The notes under the pieces are model-generated. The model saw only the letters and a list, made by a program, of their open reading frames with translations, had not been told where the DNA came from and ran no database searches. A stretch of 64,000 bases of DNA from Escherichia phage FEC14. The translations under genes were made by a program, and so were the position numbers. Numbering within the stretch: position 1 is the first letter of the stretch; every line of letters begins with the position of its first letter. Location: the sequence record MG383452; one strand, written 5' to 3'. Shown one piece after another: positions 50,788 to 64,000 of this stretch.

Positions 50788-51058
50788 CTGAAAGACTGCT
50801 GCTATTGAGTTTTAACTCAGCCATGTTTTGTTTGACATATGCGAGGTCAGTATTCATGATCGCCATACGTTCACTCATGTCATTCACTTTCTGAAGAACT
50901 TGATCCATCTTGTTGGAATCTCGTTCCAATACATTCACGCGCGTTTCCATCCCGCCCATGAACCAAAGGAACGATGCTGCCGAGACCAATGCAGAAGCCA
51001 CGACGGCAGTTAAGATACCACGGATGTCAAGCCCCGTTCTTTCAGCTTGCGTCGCCAT
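50717..51058 (-). CDS. membrane-anchored coiled-coil protein (113 aa)
   Basis: N-terminal TM segment ILTAVVASALVSAASFLWFMG followed by heptad-like sequence. Confidence 0.4.
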   Translation of the reverse strand: MATQAERTGLDIRGILTAVVASALVSAASFLWFMGGMETRVNVLERDSNKMDQVLQKVNDMSERMAIMNTDLAYVKQNMAELKLNSSSLSDDVRTLRITVSDLQQKGNNNGRQ

Positions 51059-51329
51059 TCTGACCTCCTTCGGGGATTTCGATCCCCAACTTTTCGGCCA
51101 TCATTTTGATTGTCGCCTCCAGATTAGATATCTGGTTTGATTGTTCAACAATGGTGGCTTCACGAGTTTCATTGCGTTGACGGGCTTGCAATGCAGCCAT
51201 GCCAGCGGCGTGATCGGTGCAAATAATCGCGCCAGGGCAAGAACTGCTTCTCAACATGGATGCGTGCCCCTGTACTTTCACTCCACGCATATCTTTATCC
51301 TCTATTGGTTTGGTGGGCTTTACGCCCAC
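51042..51329 (-). CDS. hypothetical protein (95 aa)
   Basis: Minus-strand ORF overlapping the next gene start. Confidence 0.35.
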   Translation of the reverse strand: MGVKPTKPIEDKDMRGVKVQGHASMLRSSSCPGAIICTDHAAGMAALQARQRNETREATIVEQSNQISNLEATIKMMAEKLGIEIPEGGQNGDAS

Positions 51330-51342
51330 CTTTCAACATTAT

Positions 51343-54300
51343 TTATGCCAGAGCAATAAGACGGAAGTCTTTAAATGAAGGAGGAGCAACGCGGTTCCCC
51401 CGTACAAGCGCTCGGACTTTCAGGCCAACAAACGGGTTATTGCTCGCCACAGTCTTGTCATACTCATATTCAAAGAATGTGGAACCGTCGTTAACCAGAG
51501 GCGAAGTTGGGGTGACGTCTTCCCAAGCCACACTATCCATCTCTTGCCCTGCTCGTAGAAGTTTCACCTGCACCTTCATCGAAGACTGAGATGGGAGCAT
51601 TGCACCAAAGAACAACTTCACAGTAGAACACGGATTATCAAATCCGATGTCCTTTGTCACGTATTTGAAGACATCTTCAAATGGATCCACACCGTATGAG
51701 TTGAAGATTACGCTCAGGTCATCGCCATCAATCATTGGAGCAGTGTACACGTTGTTTTCACTACGCGTCATGGTGGCTCGGATTTGGAAATCCCCGACCT
51801 GACGATAGATACCTTCAGTCGGCAATGCCACGTCAGTGTCAGTTTCAAACTCAGCCCAATCAGACATAGAATTTGAAGTGGCATCGCGATAACGGTATTC
51901 CAATTTCAGAATTGAACCTTCCAGAGCCGAATTGGTAACGCTGGCATAGAACATATCAACCAGATAATTGCCCAAGAAAGAAGCATTATCTCCACCGATT
52001 TGTCCATTGCTGTCTGCTGCCGTACCGACGTCAATCTTGAATGAAGTATAGCTCGCATCTGTCACAGTAAACGTTTTGTTAAGTTGTTCAGGAGTAAAGC
52101 CACAACCGCCTGTCAATTCAGAAAGAGTGACATTGTTCCCAGCAACCAAACCATGACCAGGTGCAAACACAGTCACAACAGAAGACCCGCTTACGCAGTT
52201 CAGAGTGTTCAATCCCAACGGACGTTGTTTTGGCCCGAGCTTCGGATCAAATGTTACAACGTTCTGTCCAGCCGCAAAGTTGCAACGATATATGCGGAAT
52301 TTCATATCGGCCATTTGGTTCGGAGACCATGTAGAACCGTTTGAAGAAGTGAAGAACACCCCTGTATACGGTTGTTTGGCGATATATTCGTTGGACAGAA
52401 GGTTTTTCTTGCCCATTTCCGCGATATACGCGTTGTAATCCTGAGTATTCGCCAACAAAACGATAGCAAACTCAGTCGATGCTTGCAGATACACCGGATA
52501 ATCAAAGGTGAACTTCGTACCGCCGGAAGAGTCTGTAGAGATCGTCACTTCAGACGGGTTCAAAGTTTTACGAGTAATGACTGTATGAGAAGGTAAGCCA
52601 TTCTCCATCTCGCGAATTTCCAGAGTGATCGGAACATCACGTGACTTGGTAGAGAAGAATACTTCCACGCCTTCGATATACTCGCCGCCATTCTTAGTCG
52701 CCACCATAAACGATTGGGCAATCGGATCACGCCATTGATCAACAACCACTTCAGAAGTAGAAGTTTCGGTGCGAGTACTAGCAGTGTAACCCAGGACACG
52801 AGTGTTGACAAAGGTCTTTTGAATACCTTGTTTCTTACCGAAAGATTTATGAACAATTTCTGCATTGGTCAGTGTATCATCCGCAGATTTACTGTCAACA
52901 GGGCTATCCGTTAAGCGGAACACGTTGTCACCTGTGTTGAACTTGATTGTATCGTTCTGTGGAACGCGGAATACACCTTTAACAGCACCATTGGCATCAG
53001 TGGTGATTGGGTCACCGAAATTACCACCATTCGGTTTGCAATACAGATTGACGTCACGACCAGAGAAGAACGCATACATACGAGTGAAAGGTCGCAGTCC
53101 AGATGCGTCGAAAGAAATATCGATCTCGCGCATGTATGGGATAACTTGCGTCTCCACAATCTGTTCGCCAGTCATGGTCGTGGTTGTTTTGTCCGTGTAT
53201 GTATATGTGGTGACATCACGGGCAGAAACAGTCGTGCGGTAACGATATCCCCACCACACACCACCAGCACCATGCGGCTCCCAAACACGATCAGAAACAG
53301 AAACAGTCCGCCATGTTCCGTACACTGAACCTTCTTGTACAGTACCACGGGTGTTGATCGTTTCATTGATAATACGCGGTGCAACATAATAGTTTTCGAA
53401 CCAGTAGTCTGTGGTCGGGTTAATCTTCAAGAAACCTTCCCAATTGAATACTGCATACGGGTTAACGTTGATCGTCGTCGTCGCATATTCTTGGTTCACT
53501 GAGATTTCAGGCGTGTAATTGCAAACCACCATCCCATCCATCACTTTGTTCCAGCCAACAGGAGTCATGTCAACAACGTTCTGTTGTACAAACGGGCGTA
53601 GACGTCCGTTTTCGGTATCGATAGAACCCATCCAATCTTCAGACAAGTCATCAATCAACCGGAAGTCTTTGAACGGATCAGCTGCAATACCATTTTTGAA
53701 ACGAGGATTACCCGTGATGGGGTCAAACACTTGCTGTGTCATCGCTGAAGATTCCAGCTGTGACAGAGAGGTATAGTATTCAACATTGGAAATACGGGTT
53801 TCCAGTTTACCGATATCGCGCATTGTATAACGACGATTATCAATAGTTCGAATTTGGATATCATCAATATTCGGTGTATACGGCGGGATCAACAATTCAT
53901 ACAAACGCATGGCGTTCGCTGGGATTGCTGGAGAAGCCAGATTATTAGAACTGATGCCTCGAGCCACACCAAACACGCCGTTGTCTGCCAGATAAATCGC
54001 GTCGATACGCGGCAGATAATATTCTGTGTCCAGAATAACTGCAGTGTTTGGACGTACCATATCTGTGTCAGAAGTTCCGTTGGTGATTTTCGGACGGAAA
54101 TCTAAACTATCTGCCAGGCCGTACACCGCGCCTGATGTAGAAGATGTATAATTCGGGATATCTTTATAATCCATCGAAGTATACGAATCAGCAGAGAAGA
54201 AATCACCGGAACTGTGGGCGAAGTATTGATACACCACTGTATACGTCCCTGAGATTGCTCCAGCGCTGGATAACAAGTTAGACTTGTAATACCCTGCATC

Positions 54301-56181
54301 ACGCTGTCCGCCATCTAGGACGAAGCTGGAGGTCACGTCTGCGCCAGTATCGTTTTTGACCGATACCAATTTCCAACCATCGTGATTCGCCAAAGGACGG
54401 CTGGTCTGCGATGTGAACGTCACTGTTTCAGTTGTTTCAGTGATGGTCTTCGTTTTAATTGTGGCCGTGGTACGAATCATCAGCGCCAGCAAATTGATTG
54501 ACTGGTTAGCATTACCACTACCCAGAGAAATCTGCAGCGCCGAACCGACCGGAGAACCAGTCAAAGACAAAGAGCCAGAGATATCGAACTGCGCTTCCGA
54601 ACCATCTGATTTCGCTGCAGAGTACAACGAAAATTCTGGGGAAAAACTATATCCCAGCGGGGCTGAAATAGAACCAGAACCGCTGCTGTCTAGCGTCACC
54701 TTATAAGTTCTGAGGACTGTGTAGTTGATATCCACGGAACCTGTTGGCGCTAATGTTTTAACACCGAAGACCGGAAGAGAGAAGATCAGGTCTACCATAG
54801 AACTCTGGTTAAACTGGTTGGATTCCAGTTCAGCAGAAAACATGGTGATCCCACTTTCTTCATAAGACACTTTGGTGATAGTGGACGCGTCCCCAGTCAC
54901 AACTAAATCACGCATATACAGGCGGAATTCAGTTGAATTGCGTTCAGCGGATATACACAACGCCGTGGCTTGAGTAGCGCCGGATGCGTTCAATAACTTG
55001 TATCGCACAGTGCGAGATATTACTGGAACACCTTTGGAGTTCTTGGTGACCAGATAATTCCCTGTAGCAACTGCGACAGGCGTGTTATTCAGGACATCGG
55101 TATCCCGTGCCTTGTCAACGATCACCAACTCTTCCCCGACGTTTTCGATACGACGACCGCGAACATAGGAAATACCTGGTTTCATTACAGACACGAATTT
55201 ACTTTCGTCGCCGCCATCAGCAGCATTGAATACACCACCGTTGTTATTGACTTTCAGGTGTTCGCGGATGTCGATCTGATGCGTTGAAACGTTGTAATCG
55301 CCGTTGGTTTCATACGTCCGTTGAGCCAACGTGTCTTCCAGAATATTATAGGTGGACTGAGTCACCATAGACTGGATTTTACCATCACGAACTTTGGCCA
55401 GTTCAACAAAGTCTTCAACCACAGCATCATAATCAAATCGAGATAAGACCAGATCTATTCGAAGACGATGAGCGCCTGGGGCTTTGGAGTTAATCGTTCC
55501 CTGAGCATTTGAATAAAGGGATTCGTCTTCAGATTCAGTCACGATGGTTTCAGTGACTTTAAATCCGACGCGGTGGGAAGACGTGTTCGAAGTTTTATCA
55601 ACGATAAGAGTCGCGTCATCAACGTCTAGGAACATCCCACGAATGAAGTAAACGCCTTTCGTCATACGAGCAACGATAGAACCAGTTACAGCAGCCGCGA
55701 TCCCATAACCAATACGAATGAAATTATCATTCACGTCGTAAGTCTGGAAATACAGATTATCGTTAACATGGAATCCGTCAGCATTACCCGCTTCAGTCAT
55801 CTCAAGGATGGCCAACATCGTATCAGGAGCAGACAGATCACGTTCAAGAGACAACACACGCGCTTTGGCGTTATTGTCTTTCCCCAAAACGTAGAGTTCA
55901 GAAATACCTTCCAGATCGGTGAATTCAGTACCACCCGCCAAAGTGAATTTCAAAGAGACTGCGGCATTGGTGATCGTCAGACCGCCAGGGATAACCATAG
56001 AACCATCTTTGAACAGATGGTTGCCCAGTTTTTCAATTTGATCCTGAAGAATAGTCTGCATCTGGTTCAGTTCGCGAGTCTGAACCTTGATAGGCATCGG
56101 ACGAAAAAGAATCCGTGAAAAACGTTTCCCAGGATTCCAGTCATCCCAATACGGGCGACGGTTTAAATTTGTAGATTGCAT
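51343..56181 (-). CDS. giant virion structural protein (1612 aa), probable tail fibre / baseplate-associated
   Basis: Longest ORF in the window, preceded by CTAAATA motif and GGAG RBS, sits within the tailspike/neck block; N-terminal RPYWDDWNPGKRFSRILFRP motif vaguely recalled from phage structural proteins. Confidence 0.65.
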   Translation of the reverse strand: MQSTNLNRRPYWDDWNPGKRFSRILFRPMPIKVQTRELNQMQTILQDQIEKLGNHLFKDGSMVIPGGLTITNAAVSLKFTLAGGTEFTDLEGISELYVLGKDNNAKARVLSLERDLSAPDTMLAILEMTEAGNADGFHVNDNLYFQTYDVNDNFIRIGYGIAAAVTGSIVARMTKGVYFIRGMFLDVDDATLIVDKTSNTSSHRVGFKVTETIVTESEDESLYSNAQGTINSKAPGAHRLRIDLVLSRFDYDAVVEDFVELAKVRDGKIQSMVTQSTYNILEDTLAQRTYETNGDYNVSTHQIDIREHLKVNNNGGVFNAADGGDESKFVSVMKPGISYVRGRRIENVGEELVIVDKARDTDVLNNTPVAVATGNYLVTKNSKGVPVISRTVRYKLLNASGATQATALCISAERNSTEFRLYMRDLVVTGDASTITKVSYEESGITMFSAELESNQFNQSSMVDLIFSLPVFGVKTLAPTGSVDINYTVLRTYKVTLDSSGSGSISAPLGYSFSPEFSLYSAAKSDGSEAQFDISGSLSLTGSPVGSALQISLGSGNANQSINLLALMIRTTATIKTKTITETTETVTFTSQTSRPLANHDGWKLVSVKNDTGADVTSSFVLDGGQRDAGYYKSNLLSSAGAISGTYTVVYQYFAHSSGDFFSADSYTSMDYKDIPNYTSSTSGAVYGLADSLDFRPKITNGTSDTDMVRPNTAVILDTEYYLPRIDAIYLADNGVFGVARGISSNNLASPAIPANAMRLYELLIPPYTPNIDDIQIRTIDNRRYTMRDIGKLETRISNVEYYTSLSQLESSAMTQQVFDPITGNPRFKNGIAADPFKDFRLIDDLSEDWMGSIDTENGRLRPFVQQNVVDMTPVGWNKVMDGMVVCNYTPEISVNQEYATTTINVNPYAVFNWEGFLKINPTTDYWFENYYVAPRIINETINTRGTVQEGSVYGTWRTVSVSDRVWEPHGAGGVWWGYRYRTTVSARDVTTYTYTDKTTTTMTGEQIVETQVIPYMREIDISFDASGLRPFTRMYAFFSGRDVNLYCKPNGGNFGDPITTDANGAVKGVFRVPQNDTIKFNTGDNVFRLTDSPVDSKSADDTLTNAEIVHKSFGKKQGIQKTFVNTRVLGYTASTRTETSTSEVVVDQWRDPIAQSFMVATKNGGEYIEGVEVFFSTKSRDVPITLEIREMENGLPSHTVITRKTLNPSEVTISTDSSGGTKFTFDYPVYLQASTEFAIVLLANTQDYNAYIAEMGKKNLLSNEYIAKQPYTGVFFTSSNGSTWSPNQMADMKFRIYRCNFAAGQNVVTFDPKLGPKQRPLGLNTLNCVSGSSVVTVFAPGHGLVAGNNVTLSELTGGCGFTPEQLNKTFTVTDASYTSFKIDVGTAADSNGQIGGDNASFLGNYLVDMFYASVTNSALEGSILKLEYRYRDATSNSMSDWAEFETDTDVALPTEGIYRQVGDFQIRATMTRSENNVYTAPMIDGDDLSVIFNSYGVDPFEDVFKYVTKDIGFDNPCSTVKLFFGAMLPSQSSMKVQVKLLRAGQEMDSVAWEDVTPTSPLVNDGSTFFEYEYDKTVASNNPFVGLKVRALVRGNRVAPPSFKDFRLIALA

Positions 56182-56214
56182 TTTGATGCTCCATCTAGTG
56201 CCATTTTATAGAGA

Positions 56215-56221
56215 TATTTAG
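56215..56221 (-). promoter_or_regulatory. candidate late promoter CTAAATA upstream of the 1612-aa gene
   Basis: Motif about 35 nt upstream of ATG. Confidence 0.45.
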
Positions 56222-56320
56222 TATACAGCCAACAAACAGATAGAAATAAAAACCCAGTTCCTCCACCTGATAGTTTTGAACTTCCAGTTCCTGTCAGGTT
56301 AACGAGACATAGCAAAAGAA

Positions 56321-56339
56321 AGCCCCCTTATTGGGGGCT
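56321..56339 (-). terminator. hairpin AGCCCCC-TTATT-GGGGGCT followed by TTCTTTTGC on the minus strand
   Basis: 3' of the 744-aa tailspike gene. Confidence 0.5.
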
Positions 56340-56345
56340 TGTATT

Positions 56346-58580
56346 TTAGATTGTTACGTTAGCAATACTTTCCGTGAACCAACCAGATGGAGTCTTAACT
56401 AAAGTAACCATCATCTTAGTTGCATAGTCTACCCTCAAAGCAGTAAAGGCTCCTGCCACATTAAAGTGGAATCTGTCCGTTACAGTAGGCAATGTTGTAT
56501 CAGCACGTTTAAGCACTACCCCACCACCAGATGAATCAGAGATAACTGTCACACGCTGGCCCATATATCCACCGCTAAACCCACTAAGGGTAAGAGTAAT
56601 ACCGGAACCAGTGACTAATACAATATCAACACCATCTACAGGAATAGATGCTAGGGTCTGAGTTGTAGTGTACTTATCAACAGCATTCTGACTAACCCCC
56701 AATTGCTGAATCTTAACTGGAGTACCGTTGCGGTTGAAGTTAATTAGGTTGGAGTCTTTGTTTACGTAAAAAGAGTAGTTAGGAATAGCGCCGGATGCGA
56801 GCATTGCTGTTTCATCTACTGACTCTAATTCTCGCAACTCTTTGTGATAGCGGTTGTAGTTTCTGTTCTGGATATACTTAGCATTCCATTGAGTAAACCA
56901 AATACCACCAAAACCACCTGATTCAGATGTAGAGATTACATAACCATCATCACCACCAGGCATTGATGCGATGTACCCAACAGAATCACTTGTGTTGATA
57001 TCCCCAGTAGGAGCTAACCCCCAAGTAACTAGGTCACGACTAATCCATACTCGGTAGTTAGTACGACCAATAGAATTATCACCTACACCATTAGCACAAG
57101 TAAACGCCCAAGTAAGAACACCATTAACCCCATCAAAAATAGGAACCAGGTCACCCTTACTATCCGATGTAACTAAATCAGATAAGTGCTGCCAGTTCTT
57201 AAACTGATGATCACTGATATAGAATTTCTGAAGCCCTTTAAGGTCTGTGGTGTGGTAAGCACGAGAGTTCATCACCATACGACCATCCGGCAAAAGGTTC
57301 AGTCCGACTTCCCCACCAGATTCTTCGGAACTAAGTACGTAGTCCATGCTGTACTTAATGTCATACTTCATGATGGTAAGGAAAGAATCAACCCGTGAAC
57401 CAGTGACGGTAGACACAATCATTGCCATCTTACCATCCGGTAAAACAACTGGTTTAGTTGGTGAAGTCCAGATAAAATCTGCCGTTGCTGGCTTAAGGGT
57501 AGCAGTAATGTTAGCTGGTGTACGCCATATAGTAGGAGCTTCCGCATCACAGTAGGTAACATATATCTGGGATGATGTATTAGGGTCATTGCCTGGCTGT
57601 GAGTATCCCCAACCCAACTGGCCTTTGCAGGAAGTAAAGTAACAGTATACCCGACCATCTACTGGGTTATACACAGCAGCAATCTCACCGTTCTGATACG
57701 TAGCCCCAAAGTTAGCTACCACTACCTTAGCCGACCAAGACCACCCATTATCAATGGAGTATTTCATAACGATATTACATTGCTGATCTGGAGTAGCACC
57801 AATATCTGTATTGTTACCATGCAACTCATTACAGAAAATCATCAGAGTACCATCACCAGTTTTAACAATCTGGGGCATACGGTAGAAGACGGTATCCGTA
57901 GGGTTAAGTTTATCAATAGCAACGTCTGGAGCAGACCATGCTAAGTTTTTACCAGAGTGACGCTGAACGCCACGGATATGGTGATAAACATTAGGAATAA
58001 CGGTTCTCACCATATTCTCTTGGTTCTGCCATGCAGCTTCTTCGGCAAATTCTTCTTCAATGGTTTTGCCATTAGCCAGTACTACCATGGATGCACCACT
58101 GGTACTGTTAAGCTGTTCCTTCAGATAAGAAGCACCCAAGCCAATCCAATTATCATCACTGGATGGTAAAGAGTTCTGAGGTACAACTTTAGGTAATGAA
58201 CCATTCCAACGATACTGGATACCATTGTGGGTAAGTACATCATTCTTTGTGGATACTATTGCACCAGTAGTAAAAGAACCAGGTAATACATTATATTCAT
58301 TGCGTTGGGAAGCTAGTTCGCCCAGGTCTACAGAACCCCCAGAGTGTACAAGCAGAGCACTGGCGCTAAGGCTAATAGCCGTGGTTCCTGCTGGAATATC
58401 TACAGGCAAGGAATACGCTCTCTGTGTTTCCTTGTCATAAATAACCTTATATCCAGACAAGGACTGTCCTGATTTCGCATAAACGACTTCCGACTTTTTA
58501 CACCCAAATTTACGAGCAATACTGTCTTTGTTCGATTCTTTTGAAGTAGAACCTTTTGGTTGAGCAAATTGCGGATTCAT
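56346..58580 (-). CDS. tailspike protein with sialidase-like (BNR/Asp-box) beta-propeller domain
   Basis: Asp-box YSIDNGWSWS and FRIP-like YRMP read in translation; N-terminal about 150 aa shared with the 710-aa tailspike. Confidence 0.7.
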   Translation of the reverse strand: MNPQFAQPKGSTSKESNKDSIARKFGCKKSEVVYAKSGQSLSGYKVIYDKETQRAYSLPVDIPAGTTAISLSASALLVHSGGSVDLGELASQRNEYNVLPGSFTTGAIVSTKNDVLTHNGIQYRWNGSLPKVVPQNSLPSSDDNWIGLGASYLKEQLNSTSGASMVVLANGKTIEEEFAEEAAWQNQENMVRTVIPNVYHHIRGVQRHSGKNLAWSAPDVAIDKLNPTDTVFYRMPQIVKTGDGTLMIFCNELHGNNTDIGATPDQQCNIVMKYSIDNGWSWSAKVVVANFGATYQNGEIAAVYNPVDGRVYCYFTSCKGQLGWGYSQPGNDPNTSSQIYVTYCDAEAPTIWRTPANITATLKPATADFIWTSPTKPVVLPDGKMAMIVSTVTGSRVDSFLTIMKYDIKYSMDYVLSSEESGGEVGLNLLPDGRMVMNSRAYHTTDLKGLQKFYISDHQFKNWQHLSDLVTSDSKGDLVPIFDGVNGVLTWAFTCANGVGDNSIGRTNYRVWISRDLVTWGLAPTGDINTSDSVGYIASMPGGDDGYVISTSESGGFGGIWFTQWNAKYIQNRNYNRYHKELRELESVDETAMLASGAIPNYSFYVNKDSNLINFNRNGTPVKIQQLGVSQNAVDKYTTTQTLASIPVDGVDIVLVTGSGITLTLSGFSGGYMGQRVTVISDSSGGGVVLKRADTTLPTVTDRFHFNVAGAFTALRVDYATKMMVTLVKTPSGWFTESIANVTI

Positions 58581-58611
58581 AATAAGAATCTCCTGTTTTT
58601 CTCTAGTAAAT

Positions 58612-58630
58612 ACCCTCCGAAGAGGGGTAT
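58612..58630 (-). terminator. hairpin ACCCTC-CGAAGA-GGGGT between the 926-aa and 744-aa tailspike genes
   Basis: Inverted repeat immediately 3' of the 926-aa gene; AGGAGA RBS of the next gene follows. Confidence 0.4.
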
Positions 58631-58634
58631 ATTT

Positions 58635-61415
58635 TTAAATAGAAGAATCCAATATACGGTAACTAATTAACTTAGTAGGGTCTACAGGATTAATCAGGTT
58701 GTAGTACCGTGAAGCTACATAATCATTCTCAGAAGAGAACATACCAACATACACTTTAGCACCTACACCAGAACAGGCATCCCCACCAGCATTGCTATCC
58801 GAGAAGAATGTTAATGAAGAAGTTAATCCGAATATAGAATTAAATGGTACAGCTAAATAAGCGCCTCGGAATGACCGTCTGATTCTCTTACCCGTCTGAA
58901 TATTAAGAATACTCCACCAGAAATATCCAGGTTTAGCACCAATAGCTATATGATATGGCACACCACTTTGTAGTTTAAGGTCGTTAGGTAAATCCCCAGA
59001 TAAAATTTGGGTTGTACCATCGCCCCCCAATAGCAAAGCAATTGTTTGTTTTCCAGAAGCGTCTATAACTAATTGAAGATGAAGACTGTTGGATGTATCA
59101 CTAAACCCTGAACCAATGGCCATGAAGTTAAATACTTCAGCTCCAGATATGGTGGGTACTACAACAGCAGCCATGGTAATACCTTCTGGACCTGCTGTTC
59201 TTGAATACAGTAATTTATCTTTGTTGGCTTGTGATAGTCTCAGACCATTTACTTGCCCTACAGAAGATGGGACACTTACATAAACAGGTGTAGTGCTAAC
59301 ACCATCAAATGTAGGGGTCTCGTTCATGGTTTGCAAACCAGTCTTGGAATAATTAACCAATCCGTTAATGCTCAGGTCGGAATTGGTGGGGTTGATAATA
59401 TTGTTATCACCAATAAAGTTAATGCCCATATAACCAGTCTCAACCACACCATTAATGGTGACACTACAATCATTAGACAGGAACTGAAAATTGCCTGCAC
59501 TAGAGTTAGCACCTGAACCACTATTCGCGGCATAATTGAGTCCTACGAATCCGTTGATAACTGCATCACTTTTGTTAAATACGATGTTGTAGAAAGTGTT
59601 GTTAGCATTGATGCCGTTACGATTGGTGTTCAATCCGTTCATGGAAATTGAATATGACTCGCTAATCTCAATACCATTCCCGCCACAATCTTGTACCTCA
59701 ATACCATTAATAACCATATTCTGGCTGTTATTAATAGTAATGCCTGGAAACTGTCCTACTGTACCATAAGGTTGCCAGTTAGCCCAAATGAATTTACCGC
59801 CAATAATACGACCATTACCACAACCATCAAGAACTAGACATTGTTTACCGCAGGTATTAACCTGGATATTTGTCCAAGTCCAATCAGTAGTAGCACAACG
59901 GACACCCACCTGATTGATGTGGTTGACTAAAAGAGAATCTGTAGTAACACTAAAGTTACCACTATCAATATTTAACCCATATTCATCAAAACCTGCTATA
60001 TGGACCTTAGAAATACACAAGTCCCGTCTTGGGTCTGCGGTAGTGTGGAACGGATAATCGGCTGAGAGACCTGAAGGAGTTTCTACATAGATACCTGTTG
60101 TGCCCGCAGTAAATGACGTGCCTTGTTGTGCACCTGTGCCATATACCCCAAAGGCGTCTAATACAATAAGGGAGCATGTATCTTTTATGGTAATACAATT
60201 CCCAGTAGCAGAAGGCAACTGATGCAACCTTGAGTAATGTAATCCAGACCCATAAATAGACGACGTATTATATTTTAACTGGATATTGCTAACGTAATGT
60301 ACACCAGTTAATTGTGTGGCCTTACCACTATCCACACAAGATTGTACTGGAATAGTATCATCATTAGAACCACCCAAAGCACCAAACATGAATGGGTTAA
60401 CTCTATCAGCATTAACACGTAACCATGCTGCGCCGCCAACAGTTTTGATCACAGTACCGTTATTATCAGTCTTTCCTGTACCATCAATTAACGCACGGAA
60501 TACCCCTCCACCAAGAAGAGTACCCGCAGTGTGTTGCTTAAGAATAATGCGTTGTCCATCCATAGTGGGTTCAGTATTCCTGAGATCAGCAACAGAATGG
60601 CATTCTCCAATATACTTGGCACCATCATTGCGCCCCAGAGTGTTTATCACATTAATAAATGAATCTTCTAAAGGCAACAAATCAACCTGCACATCACCTG
60701 GGTTGTAATTCAATTTCCCAGCAGATACAGAAGAAATGACAGAACCATCAGGAATGGTTGGTAAACCATAACTGGTTTGCGTCGCTATATCATAAACAAC
60801 TTTCTTCCCATCCAACAAAGATATGGTGTCCGTACTAACGATGACTTCAGAGTCTTTTACATTAGCAGAACGGGCGATTTCTTGAATACTTCGGTCAAAC
60901 GCCGGACTGATATTCGGTTGTTTAACAGACATTTCAGCGACTACCCAAACGCCTGCAGTCAGTGCAGTTTGCAAAGACACTTTCCCTGTCGTGCTGTTAT
61001 AGGAATATTCAATTTCGGGTGTTTTGTACTCGCCACCGATATAAAGAGATTGGACACCATAGGATGTGAAATCAGGAGTGAACTCGGTTTCACCCCCTAC
61101 GGCTTGAAATTTGTATATGCGGATACCTTTGGCTGTATCTTCTGGCGAAAGAATTTTATCGAATAAGCAATACACAACATCGCCTTTGGACAATGCGCGC
61201 CCGAGATTCAACGTATTTCCTTCGATTTCAAAGTTGTCTAACGGAACTTGCATACCACCGTTGATTGTGACTACGCCAGTGACAGGATAGAACGGCAAGG
61301 AAAGGAAAGTTTCTCCACCAACATTTGATTTATACGTGAAAGGAATCTGGTGGGGAGCTGTGATTACGCCGCCGAATAATTCTTCTACATTTCTGGTCAT
61401 TTGAAAATACCCCAT
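58635..61415 (-). CDS. tailspike protein with parallel beta-helix (depolymerase-like) domain (926 aa)
   Basis: Repetitive Asn/Gly/Ile-rich rungs (e.g. NGIEISESYSISMNGLNTNRNGINANN) typical of right-handed beta-helices; distinct N-terminus from neighbours. Confidence 0.7.
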   Translation of the reverse strand: MGYFQMTRNVEELFGGVITAPHQIPFTYKSNVGGETFLSLPFYPVTGVVTINGGMQVPLDNFEIEGNTLNLGRALSKGDVVYCLFDKILSPEDTAKGIRIYKFQAVGGETEFTPDFTSYGVQSLYIGGEYKTPEIEYSYNSTTGKVSLQTALTAGVWVVAEMSVKQPNISPAFDRSIQEIARSANVKDSEVIVSTDTISLLDGKKVVYDIATQTSYGLPTIPDGSVISSVSAGKLNYNPGDVQVDLLPLEDSFINVINTLGRNDGAKYIGECHSVADLRNTEPTMDGQRIILKQHTAGTLLGGGVFRALIDGTGKTDNNGTVIKTVGGAAWLRVNADRVNPFMFGALGGSNDDTIPVQSCVDSGKATQLTGVHYVSNIQLKYNTSSIYGSGLHYSRLHQLPSATGNCITIKDTCSLIVLDAFGVYGTGAQQGTSFTAGTTGIYVETPSGLSADYPFHTTADPRRDLCISKVHIAGFDEYGLNIDSGNFSVTTDSLLVNHINQVGVRCATTDWTWTNIQVNTCGKQCLVLDGCGNGRIIGGKFIWANWQPYGTVGQFPGITINNSQNMVINGIEVQDCGGNGIEISESYSISMNGLNTNRNGINANNTFYNIVFNKSDAVINGFVGLNYAANSGSGANSSAGNFQFLSNDCSVTINGVVETGYMGINFIGDNNIINPTNSDLSINGLVNYSKTGLQTMNETPTFDGVSTTPVYVSVPSSVGQVNGLRLSQANKDKLLYSRTAGPEGITMAAVVVPTISGAEVFNFMAIGSGFSDTSNSLHLQLVIDASGKQTIALLLGGDGTTQILSGDLPNDLKLQSGVPYHIAIGAKPGYFWWSILNIQTGKRIRRSFRGAYLAVPFNSIFGLTSSLTFFSDSNAGGDACSGVGAKVYVGMFSSENDYVASRYYNLINPVDPTKLISYRILDSSI

Positions 61416-61434
61416 AAAGGATTTGCCAATATGG

Positions 61435-61441
61435 GGTATTT
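61435..61441 (-). promoter_or_regulatory. candidate late promoter CTAAATACCCCAT upstream of the 926-aa tailspike
   Basis: Part of an about 50-nt module nearly identical to that upstream of the 710-aa tailspike. Confidence 0.45.
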
Positions 61442-61505
61442 AGGCTGAACTAATAAAATTTATAATAAGATCCCCCCGCTTTTGGCGAGGAGGGATGGTT
61501 GTTAA

Positions 61506-63638
61506 TCATATCAATCCGTAAATGACATTGTGTATTGCGATACCACCAACAATAGAGGAAACATTGAAATTAATTTCAGCTTTGTAAGCTCCTGGCGGAA
61601 CGCAATCCACCAAAGCATAAAAGTTGAACGTGTTTCCTACTGGGATGTTATATCCTATGGAATCCGCGACAGCATTTCCTTGCTGGTCCAGGAATCTAAT
61701 TGATGCCAGGGTGGTGGTTGTATTTTTAGCCCAAAAACCAAGTTGAAAATAACGCCCAGGCTCACAGTCAATGATTGTCTGGGTGAAATTAGCCGCTGCA
61801 CCCACTGATGGTACGGATAAGACAAAAGAAGTTGAAAACATTAAATCATTAGGGACATCATTTCCTACAGTAGCGGTGACAACGCCGGATCCAGTTTGTG
61901 ACAGCGCCCAGTTAGATATATTATTAAACTGTCCTGAACCGTTACTAATACTGTTTATATGAGGGCTTACAATGCATCCTAAATCCCAGTTACTTGTGAT
62001 AAATCCTGCGCGTGGATAGCAACCTCTAGACATTACTTTTTTACTTAATCCGCCTATCAACTGCCTTGTGGCAAATCCAGTAGCAATCGTTGTATTCCCA
62101 TAGAGTGGTAGCGAACAATTATTTAGAATAACAACCCCATCCCCGTTGTTTACAATAGGTACTGTAGAATAATCATTTGGCAACAGTATCGTCGAATCAC
62201 TGATGCTTAATCGTGAACTACCATCCACAGTAAACCCAACGAAACTCTGACCTGGTTGATACTCAATGTTACCGTTTGTGAAAACCATAGTTGCGTTATC
62301 AGATAACGCGACAACAGGGTCAAAATATCCTGATTTTTTACCTGCTGGCAGAGAGCAGCTATCGAATATAAATTGACCATTAACAAACGTGAAAGGTCCA
62401 CCGTTGTCAACCATCCAACAATGATTAAATTTTATAACCTCACCGGAATTCGCTGGTGAATTGAAAATAACAGAATTTGTAAAACTTCTGGACAACGTAC
62501 ATTTATCAAAAAGAATACGATATGCATTATCAAGAAACTCAATTCCGGCAGTTGAGATAAACCCGCAATTAGATATTCTTAACTCTGAGACTTCTCCACT
62601 GGTAGAACCACCGATCGCCAATTTCCTGGTCCCTTTTCCAACAAATGACACTCCAGTCATTAACGCAGTTGCGTTAATTACATCTCTATTGGTGTAATCC
62701 GTGTCTGTATTAACAATGGTTAGATAGTAGCCGCCCGTTGCAGATGCAGATTCTATTAGAGTACATTTATTTTTTCCAATAAGTGCACCTTTTGCTATAT
62801 CAAAAATAATCGGTGTTGTTATCTCACCAGAAACAGGGACTACACAGTCAAATCCGACGGCATTTATTTTATTGATGAATATAGCCAAATCTCCGGTTCC
62901 TGTATAACCAGCTTCGTACACATCCACCACACCGTTGAATAATTTCCTTTTCCAAACGACACCATTGCCTTGGAAAGTAACGATATTATCTACCACAGTA
63001 TCTGAGTTAACAGCCACCATAACACCGCCACCAAGATTAAACCCGTCAACATACGAATCAAGAATTATAGAATCACCAATTAATCCTGCTATTGATGATA
63101 ATTCAGAAACTGATGATACGGTTCCTATATAAGATAAGCCATTCGGTTTATTTAAATTACTTTTCAGAGATGCAACACCAACACTCAACCATGCACCTAA
63201 ACCAACGCCACCAGATGTTTCAGGTGTTGAGCCAGCATCGACAGTTTTAGGAAGTGAACCATCCCATCGATATTTTTTATCATCGTGAACAAGAAGTTCA
63301 TTTTTCACATTAATGATATGGCCGAAATTAAAAGAACCAGGTAAAGTCACATATTCTTCGCGGCTTACTGCTAATTCCCCAAGGTCAACAGAGCCAGCGG
63401 AATGAGTGAGGATGGCTTGTTCGTTCAGGCTTATCGCAGTCGTTCCTGAAACAATACCCGAAGGAAGAGAATAAGCCCGTTGGGTAGACTCATCATAAAT
63501 TACTTTAAATCCACCGAGATCAATACCGACAGTGAAATAAATGACTTCGTCTTCTTTGACACCGAAATTTCGAGCGATAGATTGTTTGTTAACTTCTATG
63601 GAAGTGGAGCCGCGTGGTTGATTGAATTGAGAAATCAT
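61506..63638 (-). CDS. tailspike protein with beta-helix domain (710 aa), sharing N-terminal anchor domain with the 744-aa tailspike
   Basis: N-terminal about 150 aa about 60 percent identical to the 744-aa protein (QPRGSTS...KVIYDESTQRAYSLP...GSVDLGEL...YRWDGSLPK). Confidence 0.7.
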   Translation of the reverse strand: MISQFNQPRGSTSIEVNKQSIARNFGVKEDEVIYFTVGIDLGGFKVIYDESTQRAYSLPSGIVSGTTAISLNEQAILTHSAGSVDLGELAVSREEYVTLPGSFNFGHIINVKNELLVHDDKKYRWDGSLPKTVDAGSTPETSGGVGLGAWLSVGVASLKSNLNKPNGLSYIGTVSSVSELSSIAGLIGDSIILDSYVDGFNLGGGVMVAVNSDTVVDNIVTFQGNGVVWKRKLFNGVVDVYEAGYTGTGDLAIFINKINAVGFDCVVPVSGEITTPIIFDIAKGALIGKNKCTLIESASATGGYYLTIVNTDTDYTNRDVINATALMTGVSFVGKGTRKLAIGGSTSGEVSELRISNCGFISTAGIEFLDNAYRILFDKCTLSRSFTNSVIFNSPANSGEVIKFNHCWMVDNGGPFTFVNGQFIFDSCSLPAGKKSGYFDPVVALSDNATMVFTNGNIEYQPGQSFVGFTVDGSSRLSISDSTILLPNDYSTVPIVNNGDGVVILNNCSLPLYGNTTIATGFATRQLIGGLSKKVMSRGCYPRAGFITSNWDLGCIVSPHINSISNGSGQFNNISNWALSQTGSGVVTATVGNDVPNDLMFSTSFVLSVPSVGAAANFTQTIIDCEPGRYFQLGFWAKNTTTTLASIRFLDQQGNAVADSIGYNIPVGNTFNFYALVDCVPPGAYKAEINFNVSSIVGGIAIHNVIYGLI

Positions 63639-63670
63639 GATAATACCCCATAAAGGATGACCAATATGGG

Positions 63671-63677
63671 GTATTTA
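63671..63677 (-). promoter_or_regulatory. candidate late promoter CTAAATACCCCAT upstream of the 710-aa tailspike
   Basis: Second copy of the shared upstream module. Confidence 0.45.
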
Positions 63678-63708
63678 GTCTGAACTAATCAAATTTATGA
63701 ACAAAGGT

Positions 63709-63744
63709 ATAATAAGAACCCCGCCGAAGCGGGGTTCTTATTAT
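63709..63744 (-). terminator. extended palindrome ATAATAAGAACCCCGC-CGAA-GCGGGGTTCTTATTAT
   Basis: Third copy of the AACCCCGCCGAAGCGGGGTT hairpin, here with longer palindromic arms; 3' of a truncated upstream gene. Confidence 0.55.
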
Positions 63745-64000
63745 GATTCTATAATTTTATAGGATAGAGAAACATTACCATCAACTGGAGCAGCATCGAT
63801 TCCTGTCGGTCTTGTTGCGGTCTTAACCATGACACCAGCGATAGTTTGTCCAGCAGTTGCACCAATATACTTAGAGCAATTTACTGAATAAAATAATTGC
63901 CTGTATTCAATATTACCTTGAACCTCACTTAGAACAACATAGGCCGCACCAGCATTAACTGAACAGTTTGTGTGTATGTTTACCTTCTCCCCTGTGGACA
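63742..64000 (-). CDS. 3' end of a further minus-strand gene, probably another tailspike/tail fibre (5' part lies beyond the window)
   Basis: Hand translation of the open frame ending ...APVDGNVSLSYKIIES; C-terminus loosely resembles that of the 926-aa tailspike. Confidence 0.4.

Follow-up and report, generated by a model that had tools for sequence, protein, structure and literature searches.

Among the closest described systems is the tailspike assembly of phage CBA120, in which the TD1/TD2 anchor docks a spike onto the branched complex, on the XD3 domain of TSP4 (PMC11721090). The assembly order and the serotype assignments used below were taken from PMC11721090, PMC8432352, and PMC12737597, and swaps of TSP modules have already been published (Sorensen 2021, PMC8432352). 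The 2024 review of the family gives every TSP a β-helical catalytic domain (PMC11721090), and a sialidase-type TSP1 does not appear in it. In the literature searched on sialidase in Ackermannviridae or Kuttervirus and on GH33 in tailspikes, the sole mention was at the level of annotation (PMC10892097). Because the review describes all TSPs as β-helical, a propeller spike in an Ackermannviridae complex has no experimental precedent.

We analyzed a 64,000-nucleotide stretch of Escherichia phage FEC14 (sequence record MG383452; hereafter the window). By sequence and gene order, positions 51343–64000, on the minus strand, hold the clustered tail-spike (tsp) genes of a Kuttervirus, within the CBA120/ViI-like Ackermannviridae. 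The genes read in the order TSP4 (3′ fragment), TSP3 (61506–63638), TSP2 (58635–61415), TSP1 (56346–58580), and a gene for a 1612-aa VriC/VrlC-like protein (51343–56181), and the four complete ORFs, all on the minus strand, lie where the first-pass annotation had placed them. That annotation had counted at least four tailspike genes; four were found here, and in the related genomes the number is exactly four, with baseplate genes then following TSP4. Its view that such spikes are more typical of ViI-like (Ackermannviridae) phages than of T4 was borne out: megablast matched 243 phage records, almost all of them Kuttervirus, and the gene order vriC-TSP1-TSP2-TSP3-TSP4-baseplate is common to Guerrero, CBA120, and the window phage, in the last up to the TSP4 fragment. 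The tsp genes are consecutive beside the DUF4815 vriC homolog and colinear with those of Guerrero and CBA120; in these two phages, the baseplate genes stand next to TSP4, and the corresponding flank lies outside the window. T4-type fiber genes are ruled out by the Kuttervirus synteny. A blastn search of 5,426 complete E. coli genomes found no related DNA, no relatives were confirmed among 185,579 species-representative genomes, and a scan of IMG/VR returned a single locus only. Scans of the entire window for tRNA genes and Rfam families gave no matches.

The 1612-aa protein carries DUF4815 (Pfam, E 6.5e-61) and is syntenic with the "VrlC protein" of Guerrero and orf209 of CBA120; such a VriC/VrlC-like protein borders the tsp cluster in all Kutterviruses. 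Mass spectrometry found it in abundance in Sajous1 virions (PMC10892097), and it has been suggested to be a component of the baseplate prong (PMC11721090). As read from the window, the protein had no exact match in the protein collection, perhaps because its start is annotated differently or because some residues are substituted; the tsp genes showed no detectable difference from those of FEC14. The subtypes published for FEC14, TSP2-1, TSP3-3, and TSP4-7, are the set found in the window, FEC14 having been placed under TSP4-7 by Sorensen 2021 (PMC8432352).

The 744-aa TSP1 and the 710-aa TSP3 had been described as sharing their N-termini and then diverging, and pairwise alignment agreed. Residues 1–171 align with 54% identity (BLASTP E 8e-52), and past residue 171 BLASTP gave no significant alignment. 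Both proteins contain PF18668 (Tail_spike_N). The N-terminus of TSP1 (aa 1–165; 58086–58580, minus strand) matched PDB entries 4oj5, 6nw9, 5w6h, 4qnl, and 9d84 with E values of 1e-39 to 1e-54, and the anchor matched the N-terminal domains in the solved structures of CBA120 TSP1, TSP3, and TSP4 with E values of 1e-39 to 1e-92. The Pfam and PDB matches rule out a low-complexity artefact as the source of the shared region. Judged by these matches, both proteins begin with TD1/TD2, the known anchor to the virion or complex, to which exchangeable receptor-binding modules are fused, as the first-pass annotation had proposed.

The other two complete spikes had been taken for β-helix depolymerases, in keeping with their identities to the solved CBA120 TSP2 (99%, TSP2) and TSP4 (about 90–97%, TSP3); both have the β-helical catalytic domain, whereas TSP1 has a propeller. 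The ORF reported for TSP2 (subtype TSP2-1; 58635–61415, minus strand; matches to PDB 6w4q and 5w6p) is present, but its length of 926 aa is that of the mechanical reading. The true start is probably the sixth codon, at 61400, giving 921 aa, the start used in CBA120 orf211, PDB 6w4q, and FEC14 ATW66764.1. At 921 aa, the protein matches ATW66764.1 exactly, and the upstream ATG of the 926-aa ORF falls inside a conserved leader hairpin. TSP2 is identical to CBA120 orf211 at 916 of 921 residues (99%) over its full length, and CBA120 TSP2 (6w4q) holds XD2 and XD3. Judged via this identity, TSP2 combines gp10-like XD2/XD3 branching domains with a β-helix specific for E. coli O157; the N-terminus of TSP4, the other spike considered for such domains, lies past the window end. 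TSP3 (subtype TSP3-3; 61506–63638, minus strand; exact match to FEC14 ATW66763.1) joins a TSP3-type TD1/TD2 anchor (aa 1 to ~150) to the β-helix body of CBA120 TSP4, the E. coli O78 module. It matched 5w6h (CBA120 TSP4) over aa 19–710 with 1392 bits but 6nw9 (TSP3) over aa 1–165 only, and 630 of 703 residues are identical to aa 335–1036 of CBA120 TSP4. A five-way alignment places the crossover near aa 130–160. As had been described for the truncated fourth gene, reverse-strand frame 2 has no stop between the window end and TAA TAA at 63743–63738 and encodes 85 C-terminal residues of TSP4 (last 85 codons and stop, 63741–64000, minus strand; the remainder is past the window end). Because 82 of these 85 residues (96%) recur at the C-terminus of CBA120 orf210 (TSP1), the TSP4 receptor module is assigned to the CBA120-TSP1/Salmonella O:21 type, subtype TSP4-7.

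The TSP4-TSP3 spacer (63639–63740, minus strand) contains a hairpin (63744–63709), CATAAATT, and a leader stem-loop. The TSP3-TSP2 spacer (61401–61505, minus strand) has the same layout, with a GC hairpin (61492–61472), the late-promoter-like box TATAAATT, and a conserved leader stem-loop that stops just short of the TSP2 start and is 95% identical to that ahead of TSP3. The TSP2-TSP1 spacer (58581–58634, minus strand) holds a small hairpin (58626–58613), and its CAGGAG, 9 nt ahead of the TSP1 ATG, is a strong Shine-Dalgarno sequence; no late-promoter-like box was detected in this spacer. A terminator-like hairpin (56320–56340, minus strand) lies immediately 3′ of the TSP1 stop codon. A scan for sigma-70 promoters showed no enrichment (29 found versus 30.2 expected).

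By homology with CBA120, the four trimeric tailspikes would come together at the baseplate as a single branched complex for receptor binding. TSP4 would anchor to the baseplate and bind TSP2 via gp10-like XD2 domains, and TSP1 and TSP3 would dock on XD3 domains via their shared TD1/TD2 N-terminus of ~150–170 residues. We infer this assembly of four proteins into one virion complex from CBA120 biochemistry (PMC11721090) and from the detection by mass spectrometry of an identical TSP1 protein in the Sajous1 virion (PMC10892097). With its own polysaccharide-degrading module, each spike would make a further surface glycan usable by the virion, the predicted targets being E. coli O157 for TSP2, E. 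coli O78 for TSP3, and Salmonella O:21 for TSP4. Taken as a whole, the region is, with high confidence, best explained as a Kuttervirus four-spike tsp cluster encoding such a branched complex, with a polysaccharide-degrading module on each spike and a TSP1 of GH33 type. A four-spike cluster is already known from the literature and from GenBank annotation and is ordinary for the family, except for the sialidase-type propeller on one spike. The propeller is an exception to the family-wide β-helix generalization, not to membership in the cluster.

The first-pass annotation had noted a sialidase-like propeller, an Asp-box, and a FRIP-like motif in the 744-aa protein, and all three were recovered. 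In the predicted structure of TSP1, a monomer model of moderate overall confidence (mean pLDDT 67.9; alignment depth 12), aa ~205–570 (56871–57968, minus strand) fold as a GH33-type six-bladed β-propeller, which is followed by a β-rich C-terminal domain (aa ~583–744; 56349–56834, minus strand). This second domain is strand-rich in the model (pLDDT about 70–85) and has no Pfam match; it is kept in all full-length homologs and is always inherited with the propeller. SIDNGWSW (aa 275–282; nt 57735–57758) is the one canonical Asp-box (S-x-D-x-G-x-T-W) of TSP1 and aligns to an Asp-box of the Porphyromonas gingivalis sialidase, and FYRMP (aa 232–236; nt 57873–57887), with YRMP at 233–236, aligns to the YRIP motif of the same enzyme. 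Degenerate Asp-boxes, SDHQFKNW (456–463) and SRDLVTW (514–520), were seen by eye at blade-equivalent positions.

The putative catalytic residues of TSP1 are R234, D259, E424, R440, R506, Y536, and E553. R234 aligns to the arginine of YRIP and D259 to D219 of the P. gingivalis sialidase SiaPG, the residue mutated in 8t26. E424, R440, R506, Y536, and E553 align to E619, R635, R712, Y740, and E756 of the Vibrio cholerae sialidase, which we take to be the Glu partner, two members of the Arg triad, the Tyr nucleophile, and the Glu stabilizing the first Arg, respectively. In this alignment, TSP1 has the Arg triad, the Asp acid/base, the Tyr/Glu pair, and the Arg-stabilizing Glu of GH33, and all seven residues are invariant or nearly so in the 12 closest homologs. 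TSP1 may be an active retaining glycosidase, in which Tyr536 and Glu424 would form the nucleophile pair, Asp259 would act as acid/base, and Arg234, Arg440, and Arg506 would bind a carboxylate. It would probably cleave enterobacterial O- or K-antigens at a sialic-acid-like residue (a 2-keto-3-deoxy ulosonic or nonulosonic acid) and so provide a fourth host specificity. We put forward tentatively the full reading that TSP1 is an active GH33-type glycosidase, the only known non-β-helix spike in an Ackermannviridae complex, cutting such a residue and opening a further host serogroup.

The propeller could instead be a noncatalytic, lectin-like module that binds a surface glycan but leaves it uncut. 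TSP1 scores below the sialidase thresholds of both Pfam and NCBIfam, with no match to BNR_2 at E ≤ 0.01 (5 of 12 homologs do match) and a score of 38 bits where the neuraminidase model NF052328 requires 900. In addition, the scaffold can do without the canonical site, because more distant family members have lost the first arginine (Y/F-A-P for Y-R-x-P in 9 of 21) and have D or H in place of E553. However, across 33–78% identity TSP1 and its 11 nearest homologs keep all seven catalytic residues, and those of TSP1 align one-to-one with positions proven to be catalytic in two sialidases of solved structure; we consider a purely adhesive role unlikely.

The TSP1 receptor module occurs with 99.5–100% nucleotide identity in 14 records, representing 12 distinct phages, and PHROG 35653 matches TSP1 at 744 of 744 positions. 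The reported hosts of these 12 phages are explained by TSP2 (O157) and TSP3-1 (Salmonella O:4/O:9). The orphan TSP1 of SPTD1, unique according to PMC9965104, was also considered, and its identity with the propeller module was not established. The unit of propeller and C-terminal domain is also found on unrelated anchors, namely, a T7-fiber N-terminus, the tailspikes of podovirus prophages, and a podovirus contig with two spikes, and an Acyl_transf_3 gene follows it in three of three prophage contexts. The Acyl_transf_3 family includes phage O-antigen acetylases, and the pairing fits a bacterial surface polysaccharide as the receptor. It also bears on the suggestion that TSP1 acts on sialoglycans of the animal host (mucins) and not on a bacterial receptor, so that the virion might, for instance, be retained in gut mucus. 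No bacterial host is tied to TSP1, and its nearest structural relatives are gut and oral bacterial exo-sialidases that cleave host sialoglycans. However, TSP1 occupies the TSP1 slot with a standard docking domain, and homologous modules appear to be the sole tailspike of podovirus prophages, where the Acyl_transf_3 genes that follow again point to a bacterial surface polysaccharide, and mucin targeting appears improbable. Slightly less probable still is a K1F/phi92-type endosialidase (GH58) degrading the polysialic acid capsules of E. coli K1/K92: phage endosialidases (K1F; phi92, 4hiz) are likewise tailspikes with a six-bladed sialidase-type propeller, but the GH58 combination of a closest fold to endoNF/phi92, a C-terminal intramolecular chaperone (Peptidase_S74), and a stalk was not found in TSP1.

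The cluster agrees with textbook knowledge of CBA120-like phages, whose host range across several serotypes is explained by the modular four-spike complex, which has already been used in engineered reporter phages. The useful lead is the sialidase-type TSP1, whose module is near-identical in 12 sequenced Kutterviruses and which is present in virions and endowed with an apparently intact GH33 active site. Its substrate, once found, would add a predictable host serogroup for about a dozen biocontrol-candidate phages and would give tailspike engineers a new module to exchange. Candidate targets are the Neu5Ac-containing O-antigens of E. coli O145, O104, O24, and O56 or the Salmonella antigens O:48 and O:61. 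Should O145 prove to be the target, TSP1 would be the tailspike that a 2025 engineering study called missing for that STEC serogroup (PMC12737597).

Compared with known enzymes, TSP1 shares the six-bladed propeller, the Y-R-x-P motif, the Asp-box, the arginine triad, the Asp acid/base, and the Tyr/Glu nucleophile pair with GH33 exo-α-sialidases (P. gingivalis SiaPG, 8feb; Hadza Hz136, 6mnj; M. viridifaciens, 1eus; V. cholerae, 1w0o). It differs from them in being just 15–20% identical, in its fusion to a tailspike anchor and a unique C-terminal β domain, in falling under curated family thresholds, and in having one canonical Asp-box, whereas GH33 sialidases usually have three to five. The TSP1 proteins annotated as "Exo-alpha-sialidase" in ECML-4 (gp189), Guerrero (gp170), FrontPhageNews, Sajous1 (gp139), and eight other Kutterviruses (PHROG 35653) have the same sequence, and in the other PHROG 35653 Kutterviruses TSP1 is paired with different TSP3 and TSP4 modules. 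CBA120 (PDB 4oj5, 6w4q/5w6p, 6nw9/5w6f, and 5w6h) is like the window phage in gene order, in the TD1/TD2 anchors, and in the XD domains of TSP2; its O157 module is likewise on TSP2 (99% identity), and the O78 and O21 modules are common to both phages. By contrast, the O78 module is on TSP4 in CBA120 and on TSP3 here, the O21 module is on TSP1 there and on TSP4 here, and the O77 module of CBA120 TSP3 is missing from the window phage. The TSP1 slot, which holds a β-helix in CBA120, is here occupied by the propeller.

On the minus strand, positions 51343 to 64000 hold a gene cluster transcribed in the order TSP4 fragment, TSP3, TSP2, TSP1 and a 1612-aa ORF. The array of 744-, 926- and 710-aa genes, a partial gene and the 1612-aa protein described in the first-pass annotation was recovered as open frames: the TSP4 3′ end (85 codons, entering from the window edge, with its stop at 63743–63741), TSP3 (710 aa, 61506–63638), TSP2 (926-aa ORF, 58635–61415), TSP1 (744 aa, 56346–58580), and the 1612-aa ORF (51343–56181), which is VriC/VrlC-like (DUF4815; PHROG 358). 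A megablast search with 56346–64000 matched 243 phage records, nearly all Salmonella and Escherichia Kutterviruses, at 95 to 99% identity; no record reached ≥80% coverage in one place, and the ceiling was 74% because the BLAST collection did not include FEC14 itself. By exact-sequence look-up, TSP3 and the 921-aa form of TSP2 are the FEC14 proteins ATW66763.1 and ATW66764.1, so that the window comes from FEC14 or from a phage almost identical to it. By contrast, the neighboring 1612-aa protein had no exact match in a collection of 15 billion proteins; either its start is annotated differently or it carries a few substitutions. The annotations of Guerrero and of CBA120, a Kuttervirus with solved TSP1–4 structures, follow the same order: VrlC/orf209, TSP1, TSP2, TSP3, TSP4 and baseplate genes.

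The alignment of TSP1 with TSP3 is confined to residues 1–171, where they share 54% identity (E = 8e-52). Both N-termini match Pfam Tail_spike_N (PF18668) and the N-terminal structures solved for CBA120 TSP1, TSP3 and TSP4, G7C gp66 (4qnl), and Gp48 (9d84), with E values from 1e-39 to 1e-92. According to a 2024 review, these tandem domains dock TSP1 onto XD3 of TSP4 and TSP3 onto XD3 of TSP2, and the first assembly step is a TSP2:TSP4 pair formed via the XD2 domains of each (PMC11721090). The solved domains and this docking scheme therefore bear out the earlier reading of a common virion anchor fused to an exchangeable module.

A sequence search of the PDB with TSP1 aa 161–744 returned GH33 sialidases exclusively (8gn6 and 8feb at E = 1e-9), and a seven-sequence profile improved the match to E = 1.4e-20 (4fj6). 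The AlphaFold2 model of TSP1 (12 homologues) had a mean pLDDT of 67.9, with approximately 80 over aa 205–570 and <50 in the anchor. When this model was compared with the PDB by Foldseek, the top-ranked hits were all GH33 sialidases (E ~1e-16, TM-score on the target ≤0.80), in agreement with the sialidase-like propeller proposed for the 744-aa protein, and the Asp-box SIDNGWSW (aa 275–282) and FRIP-like FYRMP (aa 232–236) on which that proposal drew are both present. A GH58 endosialidase identity was rejected in view of the fold ranking and the absent chaperone domain.

R234, within YRMP, and D259 align with YRIP and D219 of the Porphyromonas gingivalis sialidase, D219 being the residue substituted in the D219A entry 8t26. 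In a profile of aa 415–575, E424, R440, R506, Y536, and E553 align with E619, R635, R712, Y740, and E756 of the Vibrio cholerae sialidase, residues with catalytic roles in that enzyme. All seven catalytic-type residues are invariant or nearly so across the 12 nearest homologues; in a wider set (n = 21), D259, E424, R440, and Y536 are still invariant, but R234 and E553 are lost in a distant subgroup. From these alignments, TSP1 most likely binds a carboxylate sugar and works as an active retaining glycosidase. A propeller acting as a non-catalytic lectin is possible, but the intact active site disfavors it.

In the distant subgroup (P0040, P0041, P0044, P0046, P0049, and P0051–P0054 in the homologue alignment A3), the Arg of Y-R-x-P is replaced by Tyr or Phe, and by Gln in one member, and E553 by Asp, His, or Asn; D259, E424, R440, R506, and Y536 are kept. 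These proteins may constitute a family of propeller spikes whose substrate is not a carboxylate or whose mechanism has changed.

The propeller and C-terminal domain of TSP1 form a unit found on several unrelated N-termini. The homologue P0005 has a T7-fibre domain as its N-terminus, and the unit also occurs in an Enterobacter hormaechei podovirus prophage tailspike flanked by internal-virion genes on one side and the lysis cassette on the other, in a dual-spike podovirus-like contig, and in a Salmonella diarizonae remnant that an IS element has truncated. An Acyl_transf_3 membrane acyltransferase directly follows the sialidase-like tailspike in all three prophage or remnant contexts found (L003, 8001–11503; L006, 8001–10461; L004, 5167–8705). 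Between the Enterobacter and S. diarizonae copies, identity is 64%. Seroconversion cassettes combining a tailspike with an O-antigen acetylase are established for P22- and Sf6-like phages, and by analogy the pair looks like one of these. The unrelated N-termini, the prophage tailspikes, and the acyltransferase neighbor are evidence that the unit is a bacterial-receptor module. A TSP1 directed at mucin is disfavored, given that homologous modules sit in prophage tailspike contexts. That this putative glycosidase is a functional depolymerase specific for ulosonic or nonulosonic acids, opening an additional host serogroup, is conceivable but somewhat doubtful.

The TSP1 family is rare: a set of 1.84 billion cluster representatives contains 30 members at E ≤ 1e-10. 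The module was found in 14 of 50,697 phage records (12 distinct Kutterviruses) at 99.5 to 100% nucleotide identity, and a few Escherichia coli phages had 25 to 30% relatives. Identity over the receptor module (56346–58080) was 100.0% in 12 of the 14 records, 99.9% in BRM 13312, and 99.5% in KEP4, whereas the flanking DNA in those genomes was approximately 97 to 98% identical. The higher identity of the module suggests that the cassette either spread horizontally very recently or is under strong purifying selection.

The identical protein carries the GenBank product name "exo-alpha-sialidase" in Guerrero, FrontPhageNews, and Sajous1. Thompson et al. (2024) classed the TSP1 protein by reference to ECML-4 gp189, listed it among the five most abundant in the Sajous1 virion, and commented only generically on its function (PMC10892097). 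The 2024 review gives every TSP a β-helical catalytic domain and mentions neither a sialidase nor a propeller (PMC11721090); no receptor for TSP1 is assigned in the literature searched.

A GC-rich hairpin follows each tsp gene (56320–56340, 58613–58626, 61472–61492, and 63709–63744), and 51000–64000 contains 23 terminator-like sites against 9.4 ± 3.0 expected from shuffles. Several of these lack a good T-run and therefore may serve as RNA-stability elements or attenuators instead of full terminators. A 62-nt minus-strand element, 95% identical between copies, lies ahead of TSP2 (61401–61463) and TSP3 (63639–63700). Within it, a (T/C)ATAAATT box similar to the T4 late promoter is followed by a perfect 11–12-bp stem-loop (AAATACCCCAT...ATGGGGTATTT) that adjoins the start codon, its 3′ arm ending 2–5 nt upstream. 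The two leaders fold at −23.1 and −20.8 kcal/mol (z-scores −3.8 and −3.4), and the same hairpin is found upstream of TSP3 in Guerrero and CBA120. The element could provide translational control or be a mere homology patch aiding cassette exchange between tsp slots. The TSP1 start has no such box ahead of it and is preceded by an ordinary, strong Shine-Dalgarno sequence. An in-frame ATG inside the TSP2 leader stem (61400–61415) supplies the first five codons of the 926-aa ORF and thus inflates the mechanical call to the form annotated in several GenBank records. The second ATG is the start in CBA120, FEC14, and the crystal structure 6w4q, and the genuine product probably has 921 aa.

TSP2, TSP3 and TSP4 carry β-helix modules. 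TSP2, with 916 of 921 residues identical and PDB matches to 6w4q and 5w6p, is the near-identical counterpart of CBA120 orf211, the O157-specific spike with XD2 and XD3 domains. TSP3 matches CBA120 TSP3 (6nw9) over aa 1–165 only, and its aa 19–710 match CBA120 TSP4 (5w6h) with 1392 bits and 630/703 identical residues. In a five-way alignment, TSP3-like sequence gives way to TSP4-like sequence near aa 130–160, at a conserved G-A-W-L-S-V-G-x-A-S-L-K neck. The TSP4 fragment shares 82 of its 85 residues with the CBA120 TSP1 C-terminus. The O78 module, carried on TSP4 in CBA120, is on TSP3 here, and the O21 module, carried on TSP1 in CBA120, is on TSP4 here. Sorensen et al. (2021) reported exactly these equivalences (TSP3-3 = TSP4-2 and TSP4-7 = TSP1-1) and placed FEC14 under TSP2-1, TSP3-3, and TSP4-7 (PMC8432352). 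The locus is a tsp cluster already known from a published phage, with module swaps that were previously described.
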